Shown in pieces: positions 54,053 to 63,693 of a DNA stretch of 64,000 nucleotides. The notes under the pieces were generated by a model. It was not told the origin of the DNA. It ran no database searches and worked only from the letters and a program-made list of their open reading frames with translations. The DNA comes from an uncultured Verrucomicrobia subdivision 3 bacterium (GTDB lineage Bacteria; Verrucomicrobiota; Verrucomicrobiia; Limisphaerales; UBA11358): assembly GCA_903878805.1 (NCBI GenBank), contig CAIRJF010000030.1, forward strand, positions 5,873 to 69,872, read 5' to 3'. The translations under genes and the position numbers were made by a program. Positions within the stretch are counted from its first letter, which is position 1. The number at the start of each line of letters is the position of its first letter.

Positions 54053-54262
54053 ATGGCCAGTGGCAAAGTAAAATGGTTCGACAACAAAAAGGGGTTTGGC
54101 TTCATCGCCGATGATGCGGGACAAGACGTGTTCGTGCATCACACCTCCATCATCGGTTCCGGATATAAAACATTGAACGAAGGCGAAACAGTCACCTTTG
54201 AGATTCTGCCGGGTGAAAAAGGGCTCAAAGCCGGGAACGTCCAGCGCGACAACCCGACCTGA
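54053..54262 (+). CDS. CspA-family cold-shock protein
   Basis: 69 aa: GKVKWFDNKKGFGFI (RNP1) and DVFVHHTSI (RNP2). The SD AGGAG lies upstream. Confidence 0.93.
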   Translation: MASGKVKWFDNKKGFGFIADDAGQDVFVHHTSIIGSGYKTLNEGETVTFEILPGEKGLKAGNVQRDNPT

Positions 54263-54313
54263 TCGCCGGCGAATTTCATTCACGTCCGCCAATGGCTTCG
54301 CTAACCTGAAGCC

Positions 54314-55477
54314 ATGTTGGAATTGTCGCCCGCTCCCGTCACTAGCCTCTACGTTCATGTCCCGTTCTGCGCGCAGAAATGCGAATACTGCGCGTTCTAT
54401 TCCGAAGCTTCTTCCGGCGAACTCATCAACCGCTACGTCAACGCGCTCGTCCGCGAACTGGAAATCGTCGCGGCCGATTTGAAACCGAAAACCATTTTTT
54501 TTGGCGGCGGCACTCCATCGCTTTTAAATTTGCGCCAGTGGGAAACCATTTTGCGCGCCATGGAAAAATTTAATCTCCTCGGCGCGGAAGAGTTTACCAT
54601 CGAGAGCAATCCCGCCACCGTCTCGGCAGATAAATCCAAATTGCTCCGCGATTTCGGCGTGAACCGCATCTCGATGGGCGTGCAATCGCTTGATGAAAAA
54701 TTGCTCGACCGACTCGGCCGCATTCATTCGCGCGAGCAGGTTTTTAAATCCTTCGACACTCTGCGCGCCGCCGGCTTTGAAAATATTAATCTCGATTTGA
54801 TGTTCGCCATTCCCACGCAGACGATGGAAATCTGGCGCGCGACTTTGAACGAGACGATGGCGATGCAAAGCGAACATCTTTCCAGCTACGAAGTGATTTA
54901 CGAAGACGACACGCCGCTCTACGAACAGCTCAAAGCCGGCGAATTTTCCGTCGACGAAGAACTCGGCTGCGCGATGTATGAAGAACTGATTTCAGCTGCA
55001 ACCAACGGTGGTTTTCACCAATACGAAATCGCCAACTTTGCGCGCGGCGAATTAAACAGAGAAAAAATTCCTGCGCGTGTCTGCCAACACAACGTCAATT
55101 ACTGGCGCGGTGGAAATTTCTATGGACTCGGTCCCAGCGCAACCGGCTATGTGCGCGGTGTGCGGACAAAAAATTGGTCGAACACGCCGTTGTATTGCGA
55201 CCAGTTGGAAAAAGGCAAACGCGCCATCGAATCTAGCGAGGAACTGCCGCCCCTGCGCCGCGCCGGCGAAATCGCTGCGTTCGGTTTACGCATGAACGCC
55301 GGCTGGCCGTTTGCCGATTTCAAAAGCACTACAGACTTCGATTTGCGAAACGAATGGGATTGCGAAATGAACCAATTGGCCGAACGCGGTTGGGCCATGC
55401 GGGATGCTGAAAAATTCCATCTCACGCATCAGGGATTACGTTTCGCTGATGCAGCGGCGGAAATGTTTCTGCGGTGA
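54314..55477 (+). CDS. hemW: radical SAM heme chaperone HemW (HemN-like, oxygen-independent coproporphyrinogen oxidase family)
   Basis: 387 aa with LYVHVPFCAQKCEYCAFY (CX3CX2C) and FFGGGTPS. Confidence 0.88.
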   Translation: MLELSPAPVTSLYVHVPFCAQKCEYCAFYSEASSGELINRYVNALVRELEIVAADLKPKTIFFGGGTPSLLNLRQWETILRAMEKFNLLGAEEFTIESNPATVSADKSKLLRDFGVNRISMGVQSLDEKLLDRLGRIHSREQVFKSFDTLRAAGFENINLDLMFAIPTQTMEIWRATLNETMAMQSEHLSSYEVIYEDDTPLYEQLKAGEFSVDEELGCAMYEELISAATNGGFHQYEIANFARGELNREKIPARVCQHNVNYWRGGNFYGLGPSATGYVRGVRTKNWSNTPLYCDQLEKGKRAIESSEELPPLRRAGEIAAFGLRMNAGWPFADFKSTTDFDLRNEWDCEMNQLAERGWAMRDAEKFHLTHQGLRFADAAAEMFLR

Positions 55478-55479
55478 AA

Positions 55480-57015
55480 TCAGCCTAGCGGCAGCCGAAC
55501 GGTAAAAGTTGTTCCCGCATGTTCTTCACTCGCCACTTCAATCGTGCCGCCGTGCGCCTCGACAATGGCTTTTGTGATAGCGAGGCCAAGCCCGGAATTT
55601 CCTGCACCCGTGCGCGACGAATCGGCGCGGAAAAATCTGCCAAAAACTTGCGGCAGATTTTCGGCAGCAATCCCCTGCCCCGTGTCCGCCACGGTTAAAA
55701 CGGCCAATCCATTTTGCGATTCCAGCGTCACGCGCACTTTGCCGTCTGGATTGTTATATTGAATTGCGTTGGTCAGTAGATTCGTGACGACTTGCGCGAG
55801 CCTCTCGGAATCGCCAATGATTTCAATGGGTTCAGCTTCAACCGAAATCTTCACGCCGCGATCGTCCGCGAGCGGCAGGACGAGTTCGGCGCAATCGGAA
55901 ATGGTTTTTGAAAAATCAAATTGCTGGTGTTTTAAAATTTCTTGGCCGGCGTCGAAGCGCGCGAGCGCGAGCAGCGACTCGATCAATTTCCGCATCCGCT
56001 GCGCCGCGCGCTGGCAGGCTTCGACAGTTTGTTTGTAACTGACAGCATCGCGCTCACGGTTCAGCGCGGTTTGCGTTTGCGTGAGGATGACTGAAACGGG
56101 CGTGCGCAGTTCGTGCGCGGCATCGGACGCAAATTGTTTCTGCTGCGTGAATGCCGTTTCCAACCGTGCGAAGGTGGAATTTAAAACCGCTGCGAGCTGG
56201 CCGAGTTCGCTTTCAGTTTCCGCCGTGTTGATGCGCTGCGACAAATCGCCAGCGGAAATTTTCACTGCTGTCGCGCTGATTTCCGAGACCGGACTGAGAG
56301 CGCGCCCAACGAACCACCAACCGCCCGCAAGTCCGACAATCAGCACCGTGCCACCGACCAGCAGCAGGCTCAAGGCCGTTCGCCGCAGGTCTTTCAGCTC
56401 CGGCGCAACGGAGCAACCGACAGTGACAATCTCCTCGGAGGGCAACTGGCTGGCAGCTTCGCGATACGTGTCGAAGCTAACCAGTTTCACGGGCAGTCCG
56501 CTCTTGCCAACTGTGTCGGCGACTTGATTAACCGGTTGAAAATAGTTGTCGGAATTATGCAGACGATTATCCGGCTGGTTCGTGGTGGCGGCGATTTGGT
56601 CGCCGTCGCGATTCACGATGCGATAATAGTAATGGTGCGGATCGCCGGCCTCGAAGAAATGTATATCCTGCGCGGGCAAACTGAATTCAGGAAAGCGCCG
56701 GCCGTTGCGATCAGGAAAATTCTCGCCGGGAAAATTTTGCTCCGGCGGCAGGCCGTCCGGCGGCGGACCGTCAAAATTTTGTCCGCGCTGAAACTGGCTT
56801 GGTGGCGGACGGTTGCCATTCAACCCGCGCGGCGGCGGACGATGCAGGGCGTTCGCAAGCACGCCAATGCGACGGTGCAATTCCTGATCCACCTGCCGAA
56901 ATTGGCGGTTGCGATCCAGTTGATACGCGGTGATGCCGAAGCCCGCGAGCACGACGACAAGAATCAAACCATACCAGATTTGCAGCCGCCATTTGATGGA
57001 TTTGAAAATTTTCAT
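55480..57015 (-). CDS. sensor histidine kinase (2 TM, Pro/Gly-rich periplasmic domain, HAMP, HisKA, HATPase)
   Basis: The start ATG at 57015 overlaps the RR stop (ATGA). It has the H-box FASDAAHELRTPVS, the N-box LLTNAIQYN, G1 DTGQGI and G2 GNSGLGLA. The periplasmic segment is rich in PPP/GNRPPP/DGPPPDG. Confidence 0.88.
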   Translation of the reverse strand: MKIFKSIKWRLQIWYGLILVVVLAGFGITAYQLDRNRQFRQVDQELHRRIGVLANALHRPPPRGLNGNRPPPSQFQRGQNFDGPPPDGLPPEQNFPGENFPDRNGRRFPEFSLPAQDIHFFEAGDPHHYYYRIVNRDGDQIAATTNQPDNRLHNSDNYFQPVNQVADTVGKSGLPVKLVSFDTYREAASQLPSEEIVTVGCSVAPELKDLRRTALSLLLVGGTVLIVGLAGGWWFVGRALSPVSEISATAVKISAGDLSQRINTAETESELGQLAAVLNSTFARLETAFTQQKQFASDAAHELRTPVSVILTQTQTALNRERDAVSYKQTVEACQRAAQRMRKLIESLLALARFDAGQEILKHQQFDFSKTISDCAELVLPLADDRGVKISVEAEPIEIIGDSERLAQVVTNLLTNAIQYNNPDGKVRVTLESQNGLAVLTVADTGQGIAAENLPQVFGRFFRADSSRTGAGNSGLGLAITKAIVEAHGGTIEVASEEHAGTTFTVRLPLG

Positions 57016-57662
57016 TCGATGCAATAGCCGTGACCGCGCCGGGTGGCGATGAATTCCGCACCGAGTTTTTTGCGCACGTTGGAAACGTGAACGTCCAAAA
57101 GATTTGAAAGAGAACTTTCGTTCTCGTCAAAAAGGTGTTCGTAAAGTTGTGTGCGCGTGACGACTTCGCCGCGGTGCAGCGCGAGAAATTCCACGAGCGC
57201 GTATTCGCGTGCGGTGATTTCCACTGCTTTATCTTTGAAGAAAACATTACGCGCGGCGGTGTCAATTTTCACGTCGCCTATTTCAATGACATTCGTGGTC
57301 TTGTTCGCGCTGCGGCGGATGACGGCGCGGAGACGCGCAAAAACTTCTTCGAGGTCGAACGGCTTGACGACGTAATCATCTGCGCCGTTGTCGAGGCCTT
57401 TCACGCGGTCGCGCGTCTGGTCACGCGCGGTAAGCATGAGCACGGGCGTTTTTTTAGTTTTGCGTAGGCGTTTTAAAATTTCCCATCCGTCAATTCCGGG
57501 CAACATCACGTCTAAAATTATTGCGTCGTAGTCCGTGCCTTCGGCGTTGAATAGGCCGTCGTCGCCGTTGTCGGCGGTGTCCACGGCATAGCCTTCCTCG
57601 CGCAACGCCTGCGCGAGACTCGCGAGCAAATCGGGTTCGTCTTCAACGATGAGAATTCTCAT
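57012..57662 (-). CDS. OmpR/PhoB-family response regulator
   Basis: MRILIVEDEPDL..., DAIILDVMLPGIDG, LMLTARD, a winged-helix C-terminus (LTAREYALVEFLALHRGEVVTR) and ..RRGHGYCI. Confidence 0.9.
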   Translation of the reverse strand: MRILIVEDEPDLLASLAQALREEGYAVDTADNGDDGLFNAEGTDYDAIILDVMLPGIDGWEILKRLRKTKKTPVLMLTARDQTRDRVKGLDNGADDYVVKPFDLEEVFARLRAVIRRSANKTTNVIEIGDVKIDTAARNVFFKDKAVEITAREYALVEFLALHRGEVVTRTQLYEHLFDENESSLSNLLDVHVSNVRKKLGAEFIATRRGHGYCIE

Positions 57663-57774
57663 GTGCGTGTGCGCGGCCATTCATAACATGACCGCGCAAG
57701 GTCGTCACGTTCGCAAAATCAACCTTAAGGCCAGATGAAGAAAATAATTGCACAGCGCTGCGCAAAAAATTGCT

Positions 57775-57817: not shown

Positions 57818-59593
57818 ATGAAAACTCAAATTCACACCCAACGGAAATTGATCTTCACTGGCGCAATGATCGGACTTTTTTCTATGGTCGCTTTAATCGC
57901 AAAAGCCGATCCGCAGATCACTTCATGGCTCACAACTTACGCGGGACAATACGCGCGGATTTACACGAACGACGTTTCGCGCACGAACGGCTTTTCGCAG
58001 ACGACTTGGACAAACGGCACGACCATCCAGACCTTACCGACGTATTGCGGTGTGCAGGAAATTTATTCGTCTAGCAACTGGGTTTATATCCGCAGCACCG
58101 GTCTAGGCAGTTTTGTGATGGGGCCGTGGTATTTGAACACGAATCACACGCTGGCATTTCCAAACTGGCCGGTGAATCAAAAAACTTTGTATCGCATTCC
58201 ACGCAGCCCGACCGTGCCAACAACAAAAACAGCTAATGGCGGTGGGCCGATTGGGTATTTTGTGGATGGCGCGGCGATGTTCAATAGTTGGGACGCCTAC
58301 ACTTACAGCACGGTTTCCAACACCGACGCGCAAAATATAACCGGCTATTGGAATCGCGATGCGTATGTGAATGAAGGCGCGAGCTTCGATCCTAACAACG
58401 CGCATCAGGCCGGCGGCCAATATCATTATCACGCCAATCCACCCGCGTTGCGCTACCAACTCGGCGACCACGTGGATTTCAATACGCTCACAAAAATCTA
58501 CGCCGAAGACACAAACACGCCGACGAAGCACTCGCCAATTCTCGCGTGGACCGCGGATGGTTTTCCGGTTTATGGACCTTACGGTTACAGCATTTCCAAC
58601 AACGCCAGCAGCGGCATCCGCCGGATGATTTCCGGCTACGTTCTGCGCAACGGCCAATACGGCACGAGCAATCTCACGGCAAACGGACGCACGACCATTC
58701 CGCAATGGGCCGTGCGACTGTTCAATGTCAGCTCAAACCAGACTGGGCCGAACGTCAGCACGAGCTATCCGCTCGGACGCTATATGGAAGACAATGATTT
58801 TCTGGGCGACCACGGCTACGCGTCCGGGACCAACACTTACGACTTGGACGAATACAACGGCCGCTGGTGCGTCACGCCGGAATATCCTAGCGGCACTTAC
58901 GCCTACTTCGTCAGCATCAGCAGCAATGGCACGCCAACGTTTCCCTACAACATTGGACGCGGCTATTACGGCAGTCCAACGGGTGGCACGGTGAGCGCAA
59001 TTTCAGTTACGGAAAACGCCGTAACCAATTTTCTCGGCAACACCAATCTGACTTCGATCATAAATTCCCCAACTGTGAAAAACGGAACCGTCACGCTCAC
59101 CTGGAGTGCGCTTGAAGGCGGCAGTTATGAGGTGGACGCGACCACAAATCTGGGAAGTTCGTCCGCATGGACCACGCTCGGCACCGGCGTTTTACCGAAC
59201 CAAATTGTCGGCGGCTACACCAATGTCACTTCGCTCAGCCAGCGTTTTTATCGTGTCGGACGTGACTCCGTGGCGACGTTTGACAGCCCCGGCACGACAC
59301 TTTTCGCGACCAATTCCGTCGCCCCCGGCGGGTCGGCGTATCGCGGCCAGACCGTGTTGCTGACCATCACGCTGCCGAGCACGCCGCCGAACCCGCCGGC
59401 AGGCGCGCCCATCACGAGTGTGACCATCGGCAGCATCACGGCCTTGAGCGCGACCTGCACGGCATCGGGCACGGTATCGGCACTGTTCACGATTCCGTCA
59501 AGTTATACGCCGACCGGTTCACAAACTGTAACGGTGACTTTCCAAAGTCCGGCACCGACTTTCACGCTTTCGAGTTATTTCACCATCAACTAA
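57818..59593 (+). CDS. secreted YHYH-motif protein with C-terminal beta-sandwich extension
   Basis: 591 aa. The signal peptide ends ..LIAKADPQ. The motif is AHQAGGQYHYHANPPALRYQLGDH. Conserved segments are HSPILAWTADGFPVYGPYGYS and LDEYNGRWCVTPEYPSGTYAYF. The C-terminal ~190 aa are fn3/Ig-like (GTVTLTWSALEGGSYEVDATTNLGSSSAWTTL...RFYRV). Confidence 0.8.
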   Translation: MKTQIHTQRKLIFTGAMIGLFSMVALIAKADPQITSWLTTYAGQYARIYTNDVSRTNGFSQTTWTNGTTIQTLPTYCGVQEIYSSSNWVYIRSTGLGSFVMGPWYLNTNHTLAFPNWPVNQKTLYRIPRSPTVPTTKTANGGGPIGYFVDGAAMFNSWDAYTYSTVSNTDAQNITGYWNRDAYVNEGASFDPNNAHQAGGQYHYHANPPALRYQLGDHVDFNTLTKIYAEDTNTPTKHSPILAWTADGFPVYGPYGYSISNNASSGIRRMISGYVLRNGQYGTSNLTANGRTTIPQWAVRLFNVSSNQTGPNVSTSYPLGRYMEDNDFLGDHGYASGTNTYDLDEYNGRWCVTPEYPSGTYAYFVSISSNGTPTFPYNIGRGYYGSPTGGTVSAISVTENAVTNFLGNTNLTSIINSPTVKNGTVTLTWSALEGGSYEVDATTNLGSSSAWTTLGTGVLPNQIVGGYTNVTSLSQRFYRVGRDSVATFDSPGTTLFATNSVAPGGSAYRGQTVLLTITLPSTPPNPPAGAPITSVTIGSITALSATCTASGTVSALFTIPSSYTPTGSQTVTVTFQSPAPTFTLSSYFTIN

Positions 59594-59606: not shown

Positions 59607-60878
59607 ATGAAAACGATTTTATCCGCTGCCATTTTCTTAGTGCTGACCGCACCGGTTTTTGCCGACCCGCAAATCACGTCGTGGTTCACGCTCGATTCCG
59701 GTAAGTTCGCGCAAATCTACCGCACAGTCGCCGAGAAAAATTCCGGCCAGACCGAAACGACTTGGAGTAACGGACGCAACGTGCAATTGCAACCGGCCTA
59801 TTGCGGCGTGCAGCAAATTTTGTCGTCATCCAACTGGGTTTATGTCCGCAGCACCGGTCTAGGCAGCCAGATCATGGGGCCGTGGCAAAACGGCTGGTTT
59901 CCCAATCTGCCGACCGACCAGCATTTTATTTTTGCCATTCCGCGTCATCCAAAAGTTCAGACCGGAAATAATTTTAATCGCCTCGGCGAAATCGGAATGT
60001 TCGTGGACGGTGTGCGAATGTTTGATGCTAGCGATGCGTGGTCTTACTCCAGCGCGGCCGGCCGCGATTTCGGTCCCGGTGGCGGCGGTGGCAACGGCGA
60101 CCGCATCTGGAACCGCGACGCGTTTCCAAATGAGAGCCGGACTTTCGACGCGTCTTACGCGCACCAACAAAATCGCGGCACTTATCATTATCATGTCGAA
60201 CCCATCGCGCTGCGCTACGAACTCGGCGACCACGTTGATTTTGATTCCACGACAAAAACTTACCACGAGAGCAGCAACGCGCCGCAAAAACACTCGCCTA
60301 TTCTCGGCTGGATGCAGGATGGCTATCCGCTTTACGGGCCTTACGGTTATTCCAATCCGACCAATCCAGCGAGCGGGCTGCGCCGGATGGTTTCCGGTTT
60401 CGCTTTGCGCAACGGCGAAAACGGCACAGACAATCTCGCGCAAAACGGTCGCGCCACCCTGCCCGCCTGGGCAATCCGCGAACAACCTTTCAACGCCACG
60501 CAAACCGGCCCGGCGGTGAATCAAAAACGTCCGTTGGGATATTACATCGAGGACTACGCCTATCTCGGTGACTGTGGAAAAACTTTAGGCAAAGATTTTG
60601 ACCTCGACGAACTGAATGGCCGCTGGTGCGTCACGCCGGAATTTCCGCAAGGAACTTATGCCTATTTCACCACGATTGATGCAAGCGGTCTGCCGGTCTA
60701 TCCTTACAATATGGGCCGCCGCTACCATGGTTATCCGATTGGCCGCCTCGTCATGGGCGTTCACGAGCCGGTGACGACAAACTTTAGCACGCATCCGGTT
60801 CCAATCCCAAAAATGGCCACTGCCAATACCAAGACTCTGACGTGGAATACCGGCAACGGCGGTTACGATTCAAAATGA
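59607..60878 (+). CDS. secreted YHYH-motif protein (shorter paralogue)
   Basis: 423 aa. The signal peptide ends ..APVFADPQ. The motif is AHQQNRGTYHYHVEPIALRYELGDH. It shares HSPILGWMQDGYPLYGPYGYS and LDELNGRWCVTPEFPQGTYAYF, and is collinear with the 57818..59593 product. Confidence 0.8.
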   Translation: MKTILSAAIFLVLTAPVFADPQITSWFTLDSGKFAQIYRTVAEKNSGQTETTWSNGRNVQLQPAYCGVQQILSSSNWVYVRSTGLGSQIMGPWQNGWFPNLPTDQHFIFAIPRHPKVQTGNNFNRLGEIGMFVDGVRMFDASDAWSYSSAAGRDFGPGGGGGNGDRIWNRDAFPNESRTFDASYAHQQNRGTYHYHVEPIALRYELGDHVDFDSTTKTYHESSNAPQKHSPILGWMQDGYPLYGPYGYSNPTNPASGLRRMVSGFALRNGENGTDNLAQNGRATLPAWAIREQPFNATQTGPAVNQKRPLGYYIEDYAYLGDCGKTLGKDFDLDELNGRWCVTPEFPQGTYAYFTTIDASGLPVYPYNMGRRYHGYPIGRLVMGVHEPVTTNFSTHPVPIPKMATANTKTLTWNTGNGGYDSK

Positions 60879-62632
60879 AACTGGCGCGAAATATTATTTT
60901 TTGCCTGACAATTTATTACGGATTTAATTTGGCCGACGCTGCGACGCTGCAAATTCAAATCACGTCAAAAGTTTCCGGCGAAAATTTGCAACCCGCGTCG
61001 TTTCGCTACCAAACTTCAGCGGGCGAAACATTTTCCATTACCCGCGTCAGTTATCTTGTCAGCGATTTTGCACTGCAACGCAACGACGGCTCGTGGCTGG
61101 AATTCTCCAATTCCGTCGCGTGGCTGGACTTTGACGCCAACCGTAATTCCATCTGGCTCGAAAAAATTCCGGCGGGCGAATTTTGTTCCGTGCGCTTTCT
61201 CGTCGGCTTGAACACAAATCTAAATCACGCGGACATTTCACAATTTCCCGCCGGTCATCCGCTCAATCCAAACTTGAACGGACTGCACTGGAGTTGGCAG
61301 GGCGGATTTGTTTTTCTCGCGTTGGAAGGGTTGTGGCGCAACGCGAACGGCGAAATGGACGGCTGGGCGTATCATCTCGCGCGCGATACGAACGCCACGC
61401 GCATCACGCTCGCTGCGCCGCTGCAAATCACCAATGAAACCAAGGTGGAAATGGATTTTGATTTGGCGACTTTGCTGAACGCGCCGCGTCCGCTTTCGTT
61501 TGGCAAAGACGGTCCCTCCACGCACTCGTGCGATGGCGATCCAATTTCTGCCGCGCTCGTCGTGAATCTTGTGGGTGCGTTTCGAATCCACAAAATCACG
61601 GCGCTCACCGACGCCGAAATAGCCGTGGCACATCCAAAGCCGCTTTATTTGCCGGAAAAATTTACACCGTATCAATTCCAGATGAGCGCGACGTTTCCGA
61701 TTCCCGACTTGCCGCGCGATAATCCGCTCACAGTCGAACGCGTCGCGCTGGGCAAAACTTTGTTTTTCGACAAACAACTTTCGGTCAACAGCGCGCAGTC
61801 TTGCGCGGACTGCCATGTGCCGGAAAAGGCGTTTACGGACGGACGCCGCACAGCGCGCGGCGCAGAAGGCGAATTTGGAACGCGCAACGCCATGCCGCTG
61901 TTCAACCTCGCGTGGAAAAAAGAATTTTTTTGGGATGGCCGTGCGAAAAGTTTGCGGGAACAAGTTTTGCAGCCGATTCAAAACCCGATTGAGATGCACG
62001 AAACACTGACGAATATTTGCGCCAAACTGCGCGCGACGGACAAAATTGATTACGCAAATTTGTTTACCGCCGCGTTTGGTTCGCCGGAAATTACGGCGGA
62101 AAAGATTTCGCTCGCGCTGGAGAATTATCTGCTCACGCTGACATCTTTCAACGCGAAGTTCGACCGTGTTTTGCGCGGCGAAGAAAAATTTACAGCGGAA
62201 GAACAGCGCGGGTTTGAATTATTTTCCACGGAATACGATCCGCGGCGCGGGCAGTTTGGCGCGGACTGTTTCCACTGCCATGGCGGGCCGCTTTTTCAGA
62301 GCCAGAGTTTTGCAAACAACGGTTCGGACGGTGCGTTCACGGATATTGGCCGCGAGAAAATTACGGGCAAGGCGAGCGACCGTGGAAAATTTTCCGTGCC
62401 GTCGTTGCGCAATGTAGAACTGACCGCGCCGTATATGCACGACGGTCGTTTTCGCACGCTGGAAGATGTGATCCGCCATTATTCCACGGGCATTCCGCGC
62501 AGTGCGACGCTGGATCCGAATCTTGCCAAACATCCTGACGGCGGCGTGCCGCTCAGCGATACGGATAAGCGCGCGCTGATGGCTTTTCTGAAAACTTTGA
62601 CGGACGCGCAATTTGCTTTGACAGAAAAATAA
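60875..62632 (+). CDS. fusion of an MbnP-like domain and an MbnH/MauG-like diheme cytochrome c peroxidase
   Basis: The start MKLARNIIF (60875) overlaps the upstream stop (ATGA). The N-terminal ~270 aa resemble MbnP (ATLQIQITSKVSGENL...FSITRVSYLVSDFALQRNDGSW...GLHWSWQGGFVFLALEG). The C-terminal half is CCP/MauG-like with two heme motifs, CADCH (61802-61816) and CFHCH (62267-62281), plus PYMHDG. Confidence 0.8.
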   Translation: MKLARNIIFCLTIYYGFNLADAATLQIQITSKVSGENLQPASFRYQTSAGETFSITRVSYLVSDFALQRNDGSWLEFSNSVAWLDFDANRNSIWLEKIPAGEFCSVRFLVGLNTNLNHADISQFPAGHPLNPNLNGLHWSWQGGFVFLALEGLWRNANGEMDGWAYHLARDTNATRITLAAPLQITNETKVEMDFDLATLLNAPRPLSFGKDGPSTHSCDGDPISAALVVNLVGAFRIHKITALTDAEIAVAHPKPLYLPEKFTPYQFQMSATFPIPDLPRDNPLTVERVALGKTLFFDKQLSVNSAQSCADCHVPEKAFTDGRRTARGAEGEFGTRNAMPLFNLAWKKEFFWDGRAKSLREQVLQPIQNPIEMHETLTNICAKLRATDKIDYANLFTAAFGSPEITAEKISLALENYLLTLTSFNAKFDRVLRGEEKFTAEEQRGFELFSTEYDPRRGQFGADCFHCHGGPLFQSQSFANNGSDGAFTDIGREKITGKASDRGKFSVPSLRNVELTAPYMHDGRFRTLEDVIRHYSTGIPRSATLDPNLAKHPDGGVPLSDTDKRALMAFLKTLTDAQFALTEK

Positions 62633-62792: not shown

Positions 62793-63206
62793 ATGAAACA
62801 CCTCTTGGCTACAACCGAAACCAAACATTGGATGCTGGTGGACGATAACGCCAGCGTTCTGGAACTGGTCTCCGCGCTGGTGGAAAATTTGACGGACGCG
62901 CCCATTGAACGGTTTAATTCGTCGCAAGCGGCGCTCGCCGCATTTGCAGCGGCACCGGAGAAATACGAAGTCGTCATCACGGATTTTGAGATGCCCGGAA
63001 TGGACGGCGTGGAACTTTGCCGCCGGATGTTGGCGCTTGCTCCAAAGCAAAAAATTATTTTGGCGACGGGCAGCGAATTCTTCACGAAGGCGGCGGCGCA
63101 GCACGCGGGTTTCAGCGGGTTGCTGAACAAGCCGTTTCCGATTGAGGCGCTGAGCACGACGCTGTCGGAAGCGGGAGTCGAAATGGGATTGTTGACGCAC
63201 GCTTAA
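62793..63206 (+). CDS. stand-alone CheY-like receiver domain protein
   Basis: 137 aa: WMLVDDNASVLELV.., VVITDFEMPGMDGVELCRRM, IILATG and LLNKPF (the D, D, T, K set is present). The SD GGAGG lies upstream. Confidence 0.85.
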   Translation: MKHLLATTETKHWMLVDDNASVLELVSALVENLTDAPIERFNSSQAALAAFAAAPEKYEVVITDFEMPGMDGVELCRRMLALAPKQKIILATGSEFFTKAAAQHAGFSGLLNKPFPIEALSTTLSEAGVEMGLLTHA

Positions 63207-63246
63207 AAATTTGCACCTGAACAAAAAAAACAAAATAAAACTAACT

Positions 63247-63693
63247 ATGAAAACAAAAATGACAATGGCAATGGTGGCCGCCATCGGCGCTTTGGCGCTG
63301 GCGGTCAACGCACAGGACAACAATCAATCGCCGGGCGGGCCGCCGCCATCTGATTCGCAATCGGCCACGCAGCACGCTGGCCCTCGCGGTGGTCGCGGCG
63401 GTTTCCATCTGTTGCCGCCGCCGCTGGTGCAACAGCTCAAGCTCACGGACGATCAGAAAACGCAGATCGCCGCGCTCGAAGCGGACACGAAGGCCAAGCT
63501 GGAAAAAATTCTGACGGCGGATCAACTGGCGCAGTTGAAAAACTTCCGTCCGCCGATGCGCCAAGGCGGTCAGGGTGGTCAAGGACAGGGACGTGGTCCT
63601 GGCGGTGATGAAAACGGCATGCCGCCCGGCCCGCCGCCCGGTGAAGATGGCGGCAACACGCCTCCGTCCGGTCCGCCTCTGGGTGGCAACTGA
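63247..63693 (+). CDS. secreted CpxP/Spy-like (LTxxQ-type) periplasmic protein with Pro/Gly-rich flanks
   Basis: Signal peptide MKTKMTMAMVAAIGALALAVNAQ. The central helix pair is LKLTDDQKTQIAALEADTKAKLEKILTADQLAQLKNF. The flanks are GGPPPSD... and ...GQGGQGQGRGPGGDENGMPPGPPPGEDGGNTPPSGPPLGGN. Confidence 0.65.
   Translation: MKTKMTMAMVAAIGALALAVNAQDNNQSPGGPPPSDSQSATQHAGPRGGRGGFHLLPPPLVQQLKLTDDQKTQIAALEADTKAKLEKILTADQLAQLKNFRPPMRQGGQGGQGQGRGPGGDENGMPPGPPPGEDGGNTPPSGPPLGGN

Follow-up and report, generated by a model that had tools for sequence, protein, structure and literature searches.

A single-chain MbnP-like and MbnH-like diheme protein encoded beside YHYH genes in Verrucomicrobiota

MbnP and MbnH of Methylosinus trichosporium OB3b (7L6G and 6E1C) are two proteins encoded by a gene pair; the copper site of MbnP is made up of a His, a Met, a water molecule, and a kynurenine (Kyn174), Trp174 lying within a conserved WxW (review PMC11951088). 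MauG, the diheme enzyme known from its complex with pre-methylamine dehydrogenase (3L4M), acts on another protein and oxidizes Trp residues in it over a long distance; its substrate is the separate β subunit of methylamine dehydrogenase, and its product is tryptophan tryptophylquinone. In methanotrophs, MopE*/CorA, which occurs with MopG/CorB, has a copper site of kynurenine and two His residues and a fold that is unrelated to the MbnP type (review PMC11951088), and it is encoded beside a diheme peroxidase-like gene (PMC11951088; PMC3621798). We analyzed a 64,000-nucleotide stretch, here called the window, from an uncultured Verrucomicrobia subdivision 3 bacterium (GCA_903878805.1, contig CAIRJF010000030.1, positions 5,873 to 69,872), in which the two folds of MbnP and MbnH occur, in the same order as in the OB3b gene pair, within one polypeptide. 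We refer to its gene as the fusion gene.

The fusion gene is a single open reading frame (ORF) of 585 codons plus stop at 60875-62632 (+), and the database gene call for the protein (P0001) has 585 amino acids (aa) and is 100% identical to the product of the window ORF. Its parts and the residues considered below are as follows, in window coordinates; pLDDT is the predicted local distance difference test score.

60875..62632, +: whole fusion gene, encoding a predicted signal peptide, an MbnP-like domain, a linker, and an MbnH-like diheme domain
60875..60943, +: predicted signal peptide, aa 1-23, read from the sequence, with a K/R n-region, a hydrophobic core, and an ADA/A site
60938..61594, +: MbnP-like β-sandwich domain, aa ~22-240, placed by Pfam, profile, and Foldseek matches and by the ends of stand-alone relatives
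61289..61297, +: WxW (W139-S140-W141), candidate Trp-to-kynurenine site, aligned with WNW of 7L6G
61373..61375, +: His167, invariant candidate metal ligand, aligned with the His of 'WMVHVGS' in 7L6G
61523..61525, +: His217 (T-H-S motif), second candidate metal ligand, outside the 7L6G alignment
61595..61669, +: interdomain linker, aa ~241-265 (~25 aa), modeled at a pLDDT of 83-87
61670..62629, +: MbnH/MauG-type diheme domain, aa ~266-585, placed by PDB sequence, fold, and NCBIfam matches
61802..61816, +: heme c motif 1, CADCH (C310, C313, H314), invariant in 120 homologs
61931..61933, +: Trp353 in FWDGRA, invariant, aligned with a Trp of 6E1C and 1IQC
62267..62281, +: heme c motif 2, CFHCH (C465, C468, H469), invariant
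62480..62482, +: Tyr536, invariant, aligned with Tyr294 of MauG and the 'IYSEGG' Tyr of MbnH

The original prediction, made from the letters of the window, had described a single 585-codon ORF with CADCH, CFHCH, PYMHDG (62429-62446, aa 519), and a Trp-rich stretch (GLHWSWQGGFVFLALEGLW, 61280-61336, aa 136-154), and all of its coordinates were exact; the Trp-rich stretch holds the sole WxW of the protein. The claim that MbnP-like and MbnH-like halves share one chain was borne out by profile hidden Markov models, sequence comparison, and fold comparison, and so was the overlap of the start with the stop of the second of two upstream YHYH genes: the fusion ATG (60875) and the TGA (60876-60878) of the YHYH gene form an ATGA. 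Two points needed revision. The N terminus, described as signal-anchor-like, does have a hydrophobic core, but it (MKLARNIIFCLTIYYGFNLADA, followed by A) looks like a Sec signal peptide that ends in an AxA site and is not necessarily an anchor; this segment has the lowest conservation of the protein among homologs (0.22 identity). The MbnP-like region, put at ~270 aa, is indeed MbnP-like but shorter, spanning aa ~22-240, and the linker that follows is bounded by the point at which stand-alone MbnP-like proteins end (~aa 240) and by the start of the alignment with MbnH 6E1C (aa 266). An alternative in-frame GTG start lies at 60842, 33 nt 5' of the ATG; it would prepend MEYRQRRLRFK and abolish the ATGA overlap. 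We prefer the ATG because homologs mostly have 581-593 aa and the database call has 585 aa.

Judged from its sequence, the N-terminal domain is a divergent MbnP. The Pfam MbnP model (PF20243; gathering threshold, 27 bits) matches aa 24-203 with 114.5 bits (E = 7.1e-33; profile positions 3-178 of 189). A plain sequence search of the N-terminal half against the PDB gave no match even at E ≤ 10, and profiles built from fused and stand-alone relatives gave a single PDB match, MbnP 7L6G (E = 0.005 and E = 0.04), in an alignment of 95 residues that does not reach H217, also with the profile rich in stand-alone proteins. The fold comparison agrees with this assignment: the significant Foldseek matches of the domain in the PDB are only the six chains of 7L6G (E = 5e-8, probability 1.0). 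The model used for this search was an AlphaFold2 prediction from a shallow alignment of 50 sequences (pLDDT, 52.7), in which the N-terminal domain alone was folded.

Conservation within the domain is concentrated at the site that is modified in MbnP. G111, W139, G152, and H167 are invariant across alignments of fused and stand-alone relatives that span 24-93% identity; W141 is invariant in five alignments, with a conservation of 90% or more in the stand-alone-rich one, and H217 is invariant in four alignments, with 90% or more in another, of 90 sequences. The original prediction had set the presence of MbnP model matches and of the conserved Trp and His residues as its own crucial point, and the PF20243 match, the WxW, and the aligned His are all there; in the alignment with Methylosinus MbnP, the WxW and one His are conserved. 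The fusion shares with MbnP/MbnH of OB3b the aligned WxW, one aligned His, and the periplasmic location predicted for both parts, and it differs from OB3b MbnP in its extra invariant H217. By analogy, this second invariant His suggests a Kyn/His/His site, and the His pair together with the WxW suggests a site more like the two-His/Kyn site of MopE*/CorA than the His/Met/Kyn site of MbnP. Neither in sequence nor in fold was a likeness between MopE*/CorA and the fusion detected, and MopE*/CorA are not fused to their peroxidase.

The C-terminal domain has its best PDB matches, by sequence and by fold, in MbnH. Its top PDB sequence match is MbnH 6E1C (E = 4e-47, from aa 266), ahead of the canonical peroxidases and MauG, and its best NCBIfam model is TIGR04039, 'MbnH family di-heme enzyme' (234.8 bits, E = 1.3e-69; cut-off, 362.85, not attained). 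The Pfam CCP_MauG model (PF03150; gathering threshold, 25.6 bits) matches aa 288-438 with 186.2 bits (E = 7.2e-55). The MauG model TIGR03791 scores 186.6 bits, under its cut-off of 443.85, and no methylamine dehydrogenase or mau genes were found at 54-64 kb of the window or in related loci. A second AlphaFold2 model of the fusion (pLDDT, 85; predicted template modeling [pTM] score, 0.77) has as its best fold matches MbnH 6E1C (E = 1.7e-23; template modeling score, 0.78 on the target) and then MauG, and the best 50 PDB matches listed for this model are to the C-terminal domain only. The high pTM and the confidently modeled linker suggest a defined domain arrangement.

With MbnH, the C-terminal domain shares the two CxxCH motifs, the inter-heme Trp, and a Tyr at the axial-ligand position of MauG; with MauG, it shares the diheme fold at 31-32% identity and, with Tyr536, probably the Tyr-His ligation described for the six-coordinate heme of that enzyme (PMC6405878). 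In the homolog alignment, there is no conserved Met after PY(F/M)HDG such as the one that ligates the His/Met heme of canonical bacterial cytochrome c peroxidases (bCcPs), and Tyr536 is, from the alignment, likely to be the sixth ligand of the second heme. Since Tyr536 stands at the MauG position and a conserved Met is missing, the domain has the signature of the oxidant-using MauG/MbnH class, not that of a detoxifying peroxidase. The position of Trp353 is the one that we take to be the inter-heme Trp (Trp93 in MauG), conserved in MbnH and bCcPs.

The fused architecture is not peculiar to this genome. Both Pfam domains are present in all of the best 120 database homologs (69-100% identity, 554-682 aa), and matches down to ~51% identity in a second, profile-based search carry both as well. 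A scan of one genome per species found a relative in 501 genomes; the best 80 loci, which the query of six fused N-terminal domains biases towards close relatives, come nearly all from Verrucomicrobiota (subdivision 3, Limisphaerales, Pedosphaera, Akkermansiaceae, Luteolibacter, and Chthoniobacter). A stop or frameshift that splits the ORF, which the original prediction had allowed for, is not what these independent genomes show: 78 of the 80 have the two domains on a single ORF, and a contig end truncates the other two loci. Two CxxCH motifs occur in all 70 untruncated fusion genes, the two halves are about equally conserved, and in 194 fused proteins H217 precedes the first CxxCH by 89-132 aa (median, 93). 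When the N-terminal domain was used to query 1.84 billion representative proteins, 2,692 clusters matched at E ≤ 1e-3; among the best 150, the diheme domain is attached in 39 (20 of them full-length), ~50 stand alone at a length of 242-273 aa, and the others are fragmentary. Nearly every one that extends over the site has a WxW at the corresponding position. The fusion is real and under selection, and it is the standard form in Verrucomicrobiota. Such proteins are already in databases as 'MbnP family protein' or 'cytochrome c peroxidase'. Our literature search found no paper on the fusion or its YHYH link, although a passing mention in the primary MbnP/MbnH papers is still possible; the BthA/bCcP network paper does not mention fusions.

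As to the fused and separate forms that the original prediction had proposed to survey, the fusion is not rare in Verrucomicrobiota, whereas in the stand-alone relatives from Bacteroidetes the two parts are separate. The closest stand-alone relatives of the N-terminal domain (24-38% identity) belong to Bacteroidetes loci such as L082, L083, and L084, in which a gene for an MbnP-like protein of 257-261 aa is followed immediately by a separate CCP_MauG gene (368-378 aa), with a 4-nt gene overlap in two of the three loci examined. These proteins share the invariant G111, W139, G152, H167, and H217 (W141 at 90% or more) with the fusion. They differ in that the MbnP-like protein is often a lipoprotein (LxxC), in that the pair lies directly downstream of an M1-family peptidase with a type IX secretion system (T9SS; Por_Secre_tail) domain and not of a YHYH gene, and in that no two-component system is adjacent. 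Since the Bacteroidetes genes are adjacent and their order matches that of the fused domains, we conclude that two ancestral neighbors were joined, in a manner typical of the verrucomicrobial lineage. The M1 peptidase/T9SS context of L082, L083, and L084 differs from both the methanotroph and the verrucomicrobial contexts.

Two further observations concern the database records. Fused forms of only 517-518 aa, followed by an ORF of 71-72 aa, occur in two independent metagenomes (L085, 6001-7784, and the contig of P0137). We considered these short forms as a separate architecture and rejected it, as they are frameshifted copies: in L085 the frameshift falls exactly at the second heme motif (GADCF/IATAA...), and the small ORF resumes at MHDGRF.... 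Either the two metagenomes share a pseudogene or the same sequencing error has recurred in this lineage. In addition, metagenome-assembled genomes labeled Bifidobacteriaceae, Akkermansia muciniphila, Pseudomonadales, Binatia, Sulfotelmatobacter, and Acidoferrum contain loci 56-84% identical to the window module (L011, L020, L023, L026, L049-L056, L065, L071, and L080), which suggests mislabeled or contaminated bins.

The analysis shows the domain identities, the motif conservation, the descent of the fusion from two neighboring genes, and the conservation of the operon, whereas we infer kynurenine formation, copper binding, action in cis, and any role of YHYH. As the most likely mechanism, held with moderate confidence and by analogy with the described systems, we propose that the fusion is a self-maturing periplasmic MbnP/MbnH chain (Trp to kynurenine, then copper) that works with YHYH under metal-type two-component control. 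The protein would be exported to the periplasm by the Sec route, after which its hemes would be attached. With H2O2, the diheme domain would form a high-valent, bis-Fe(IV)-type oxidant, and long-range hole transfer would oxidize one Trp of the WxW in the tethered domain to kynurenine. The kynurenine would complete a copper site, probably consisting of Kyn, His167, and His217, and the matured protein would go on to handle copper in the periplasm alongside the YHYH protein or proteins co-translated with it, control being exerted via the adjacent heavy-metal-type two-component system. The intramolecular, single-turnover maturation put forward in the original prediction is a reasonable inference, and the data are compatible with action in cis or in trans.

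The genes that surround the fusion gene and enter into this proposal are the following.

59607..60878, +: YHYH gene 2, 423 aa, with a predicted signal peptide and a match to Pfam PF14240 (E = 2e-42); its stop overlaps the fusion start (ATGA)
57818..59593, +: YHYH gene 1, 591 aa, with a predicted signal peptide and a match to Pfam PF14240 (E = 5e-38); 13 nt 5' of gene 2
57012..57680, -: OmpR-type response regulator (Pfam), divergent from the YHYH/fusion operon, its position conserved in many loci
55480..57024, -: sensor histidine kinase (HAMP-HisKA-HATPase; Pfam), its position conserved
62793..63206, +: single-domain response regulator (Pfam Response_reg), downstream of the fusion gene and recurring in many loci

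The YHYH family occurs in bacteria and diatoms. A PDB search with the YHYH protein gave no match, and a literature search for YHYH/PF14240 found no functional paper. One or two YHYH genes precede the fusion gene on the same strand, and it is the last gene of the set. This partner, which the original prediction under-weighted, is its most conserved neighbor: of the 71 loci that extend far enough, 59 have a YHYH gene immediately upstream, and 10 have at least two upstream YHYH genes. The YHYH stop and the fusion start overlap by 4 nt in 17 of 65 loci (as ATGA in 15), and in 40 the gap does not exceed 30 nt. YHYH also adjoins fused relatives of only 35-37% identity. Among 69 YHYH orthologs, H186, H194, H196, H229, M90, M261, W168, W235, W288, and C341 reach a conservation of 95% or more, and from this sequence evidence the family may have a site for a metal or for redox chemistry. 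YHYH gene 1 has a Thr/Ser/Pro-rich C-terminal extension of ~200 aa with no Pfam match, and the predicted mature N terminus of both paralogs begins with DPQITSW.

This constancy of YHYH raises the possibility that the partner could be the real or an additional substrate. In such a case the main substrate of the diheme domain would be YHYH or another protein, and the MbnP-like domain would be a module for docking, hole relay, or metal delivery. MauG-type enzymes do act at long range on a separate protein (PMC6405878), the invariant His, Met, Trp, and Tyr residues of YHYH are plausible targets or metal ligands, and the ATGA overlap and the retention of YHYH beside distant fused relatives also speak for it. 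We nevertheless consider this explanation unlikely, though it is the most probable of the alternatives. The unfused Bacteroidetes pairs have no YHYH neighbor in the three loci examined, yet they keep the same WxW/His/His set, which points to MbnP as the ancestral substrate, and an adjacent YHYH gene is missing in 12 of the 71 fused loci.

The proposed metal-type control of the self-maturing chain draws on the two-component genes. The best NCBIfam model for the regulator is TIGR01387, heavy-metal response regulator (227.6 bits), and that for the kinase is TIGR01386, heavy-metal sensor kinase (285.6 bits). The TIGR01386/TIGR01387 subfamilies are those of CusS/CopS and CusR/CopR; the periplasmic region of the kinase is rich in Pro, Gly, and Asn and, by inspection, unlike known copper sensors. 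A Gly/Pro-rich secreted ORF at 63211-63693 (+) has a weak likeness to Spy/CpxP (E = 6.7e-6, far under the cut-off), and cold-shock protein and radical-SAM genes lie at 54053-55477 (+), on the upstream side of the kinase gene. A 342-kb contig of a relative has the same succession of genes (glutamate synthase, cold-shock protein, radical SAM, kinase, regulator, YHYH, fusion, regulator), which indicates a stable chromosomal neighborhood and not a mobile island. The OB3b-type context is absent near the fusion gene, where there is no methanobactin operon or TonB-dependent transporter and the partner is YHYH.

Apart from the YHYH partner, several observations weigh against self-maturation with copper. 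The N-terminal domain has only ~16% identity to MbnP, and its score with the strict MbnP model TIGR04052 (38.5 bits, E = 8.3e-10) does not reach the curated cut-off of 140, so that both halves, unlike the strict MbnP and MbnH families, fall under the cut-offs of TIGR04052 and TIGR04039. The four-Cys motif of TIGR04052 is absent, the Cys residues of the domain being C10, C104, and C219, none of them conserved. The homolog alignment contains no conserved Met in the domain, although MbnP has a Met ligand; any metal site of the domain would thus have to be unlike that of MbnP. The 7L6G His aligned to H167, a candidate copper ligand, has a Met at i-2. The regulator and the kinase score just under the cut-offs of their heavy-metal models (279.2 and 292.55, respectively), and neither a copper transporter or chaperone nor other copper-specific genes were found in the immediate neighborhood by Pfam or in related loci. 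For the fusion subfamily, moreover, the chemistry is a prediction from sequence and fold.

The divergence of the domain and the lack of copper genes would also fit an MbnP-like domain that stays unmodified or binds a ligand other than copper, in which case the fusion would merely tether a binding domain to an unrelated periplasmic redox enzyme. We regard this explanation as doubtful. The Trp residues of the WxW and the two His residues are the most conserved residues of the domain, even between fused and unfused relatives that have diverged widely. This speaks for a functional site at the very place that is modified in MbnP, and the MbnP-like domain is always fused to or paired with an MbnH-type enzyme.

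It is highly improbable, in our view, that the C-terminal domain functions as a common cytochrome c peroxidase in the detoxification of H2O2 in the periplasm, with the N-terminal domain as an accessory. The public annotation 'cytochrome c peroxidase' and the strong matches to canonical bCcPs (e.g., 1IQC, E = 7e-40) speak for it. The best sequence and fold matches are, however, MbnH and then MauG; Tyr536 occupies the position of MauG Tyr294, where bCcPs have Met, no conserved Met follows, and the bCcP alignments to the domain stop at aa 534-538, just before Tyr536. Simple detoxification would also give no rationale for a constant MbnP-type partner domain. That the single ORF is an assembly or sequencing artifact merging two neighboring genes, as a single-base error could in principle do where unfused pairs overlap by just 4 nt, is refuted by the comparative data, with an uninterrupted ORF in 78 of 80 species-level genomes and at least 120 database proteins and a conserved linker of ~25 aa.

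Returning to the self-maturing chain, we also considered a broader version of it, in which YHYH, the fusion, and the two-component system make up an unrecognized verrucomicrobial periplasmic metal system and the diheme domain modifies both its own MbnP-like domain and YHYH, the latter, e.g., at the invariant Y-H-Y-H or Trp residues. We hold this version to be rather improbable.

We know of no structure of the complex in which MbnH would recognize MbnP and convert a buried Trp to kynurenine. The fusion is a natural single-chain enzyme-substrate complex with a short, confidently modeled linker, which makes it useful for work on structure and mechanism, and it permits a direct comparison of action in cis and in trans and of single turnover. 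That partner genes have fused is in itself a common evolutionary event and not surprising, which tempers the interest of the architecture as such. The subfamily appears to exchange the Met ligand of MbnP for a second His, which bears on the variety of kynurenine-copper sites. The near-obligate pairing with YHYH is a first functional lead for this uncharacterized family, which would gain its first function if the broader version were true. The pairing also directs attention to a module for the handling of copper or other metals with a wide distribution among soil and freshwater Verrucomicrobiota.

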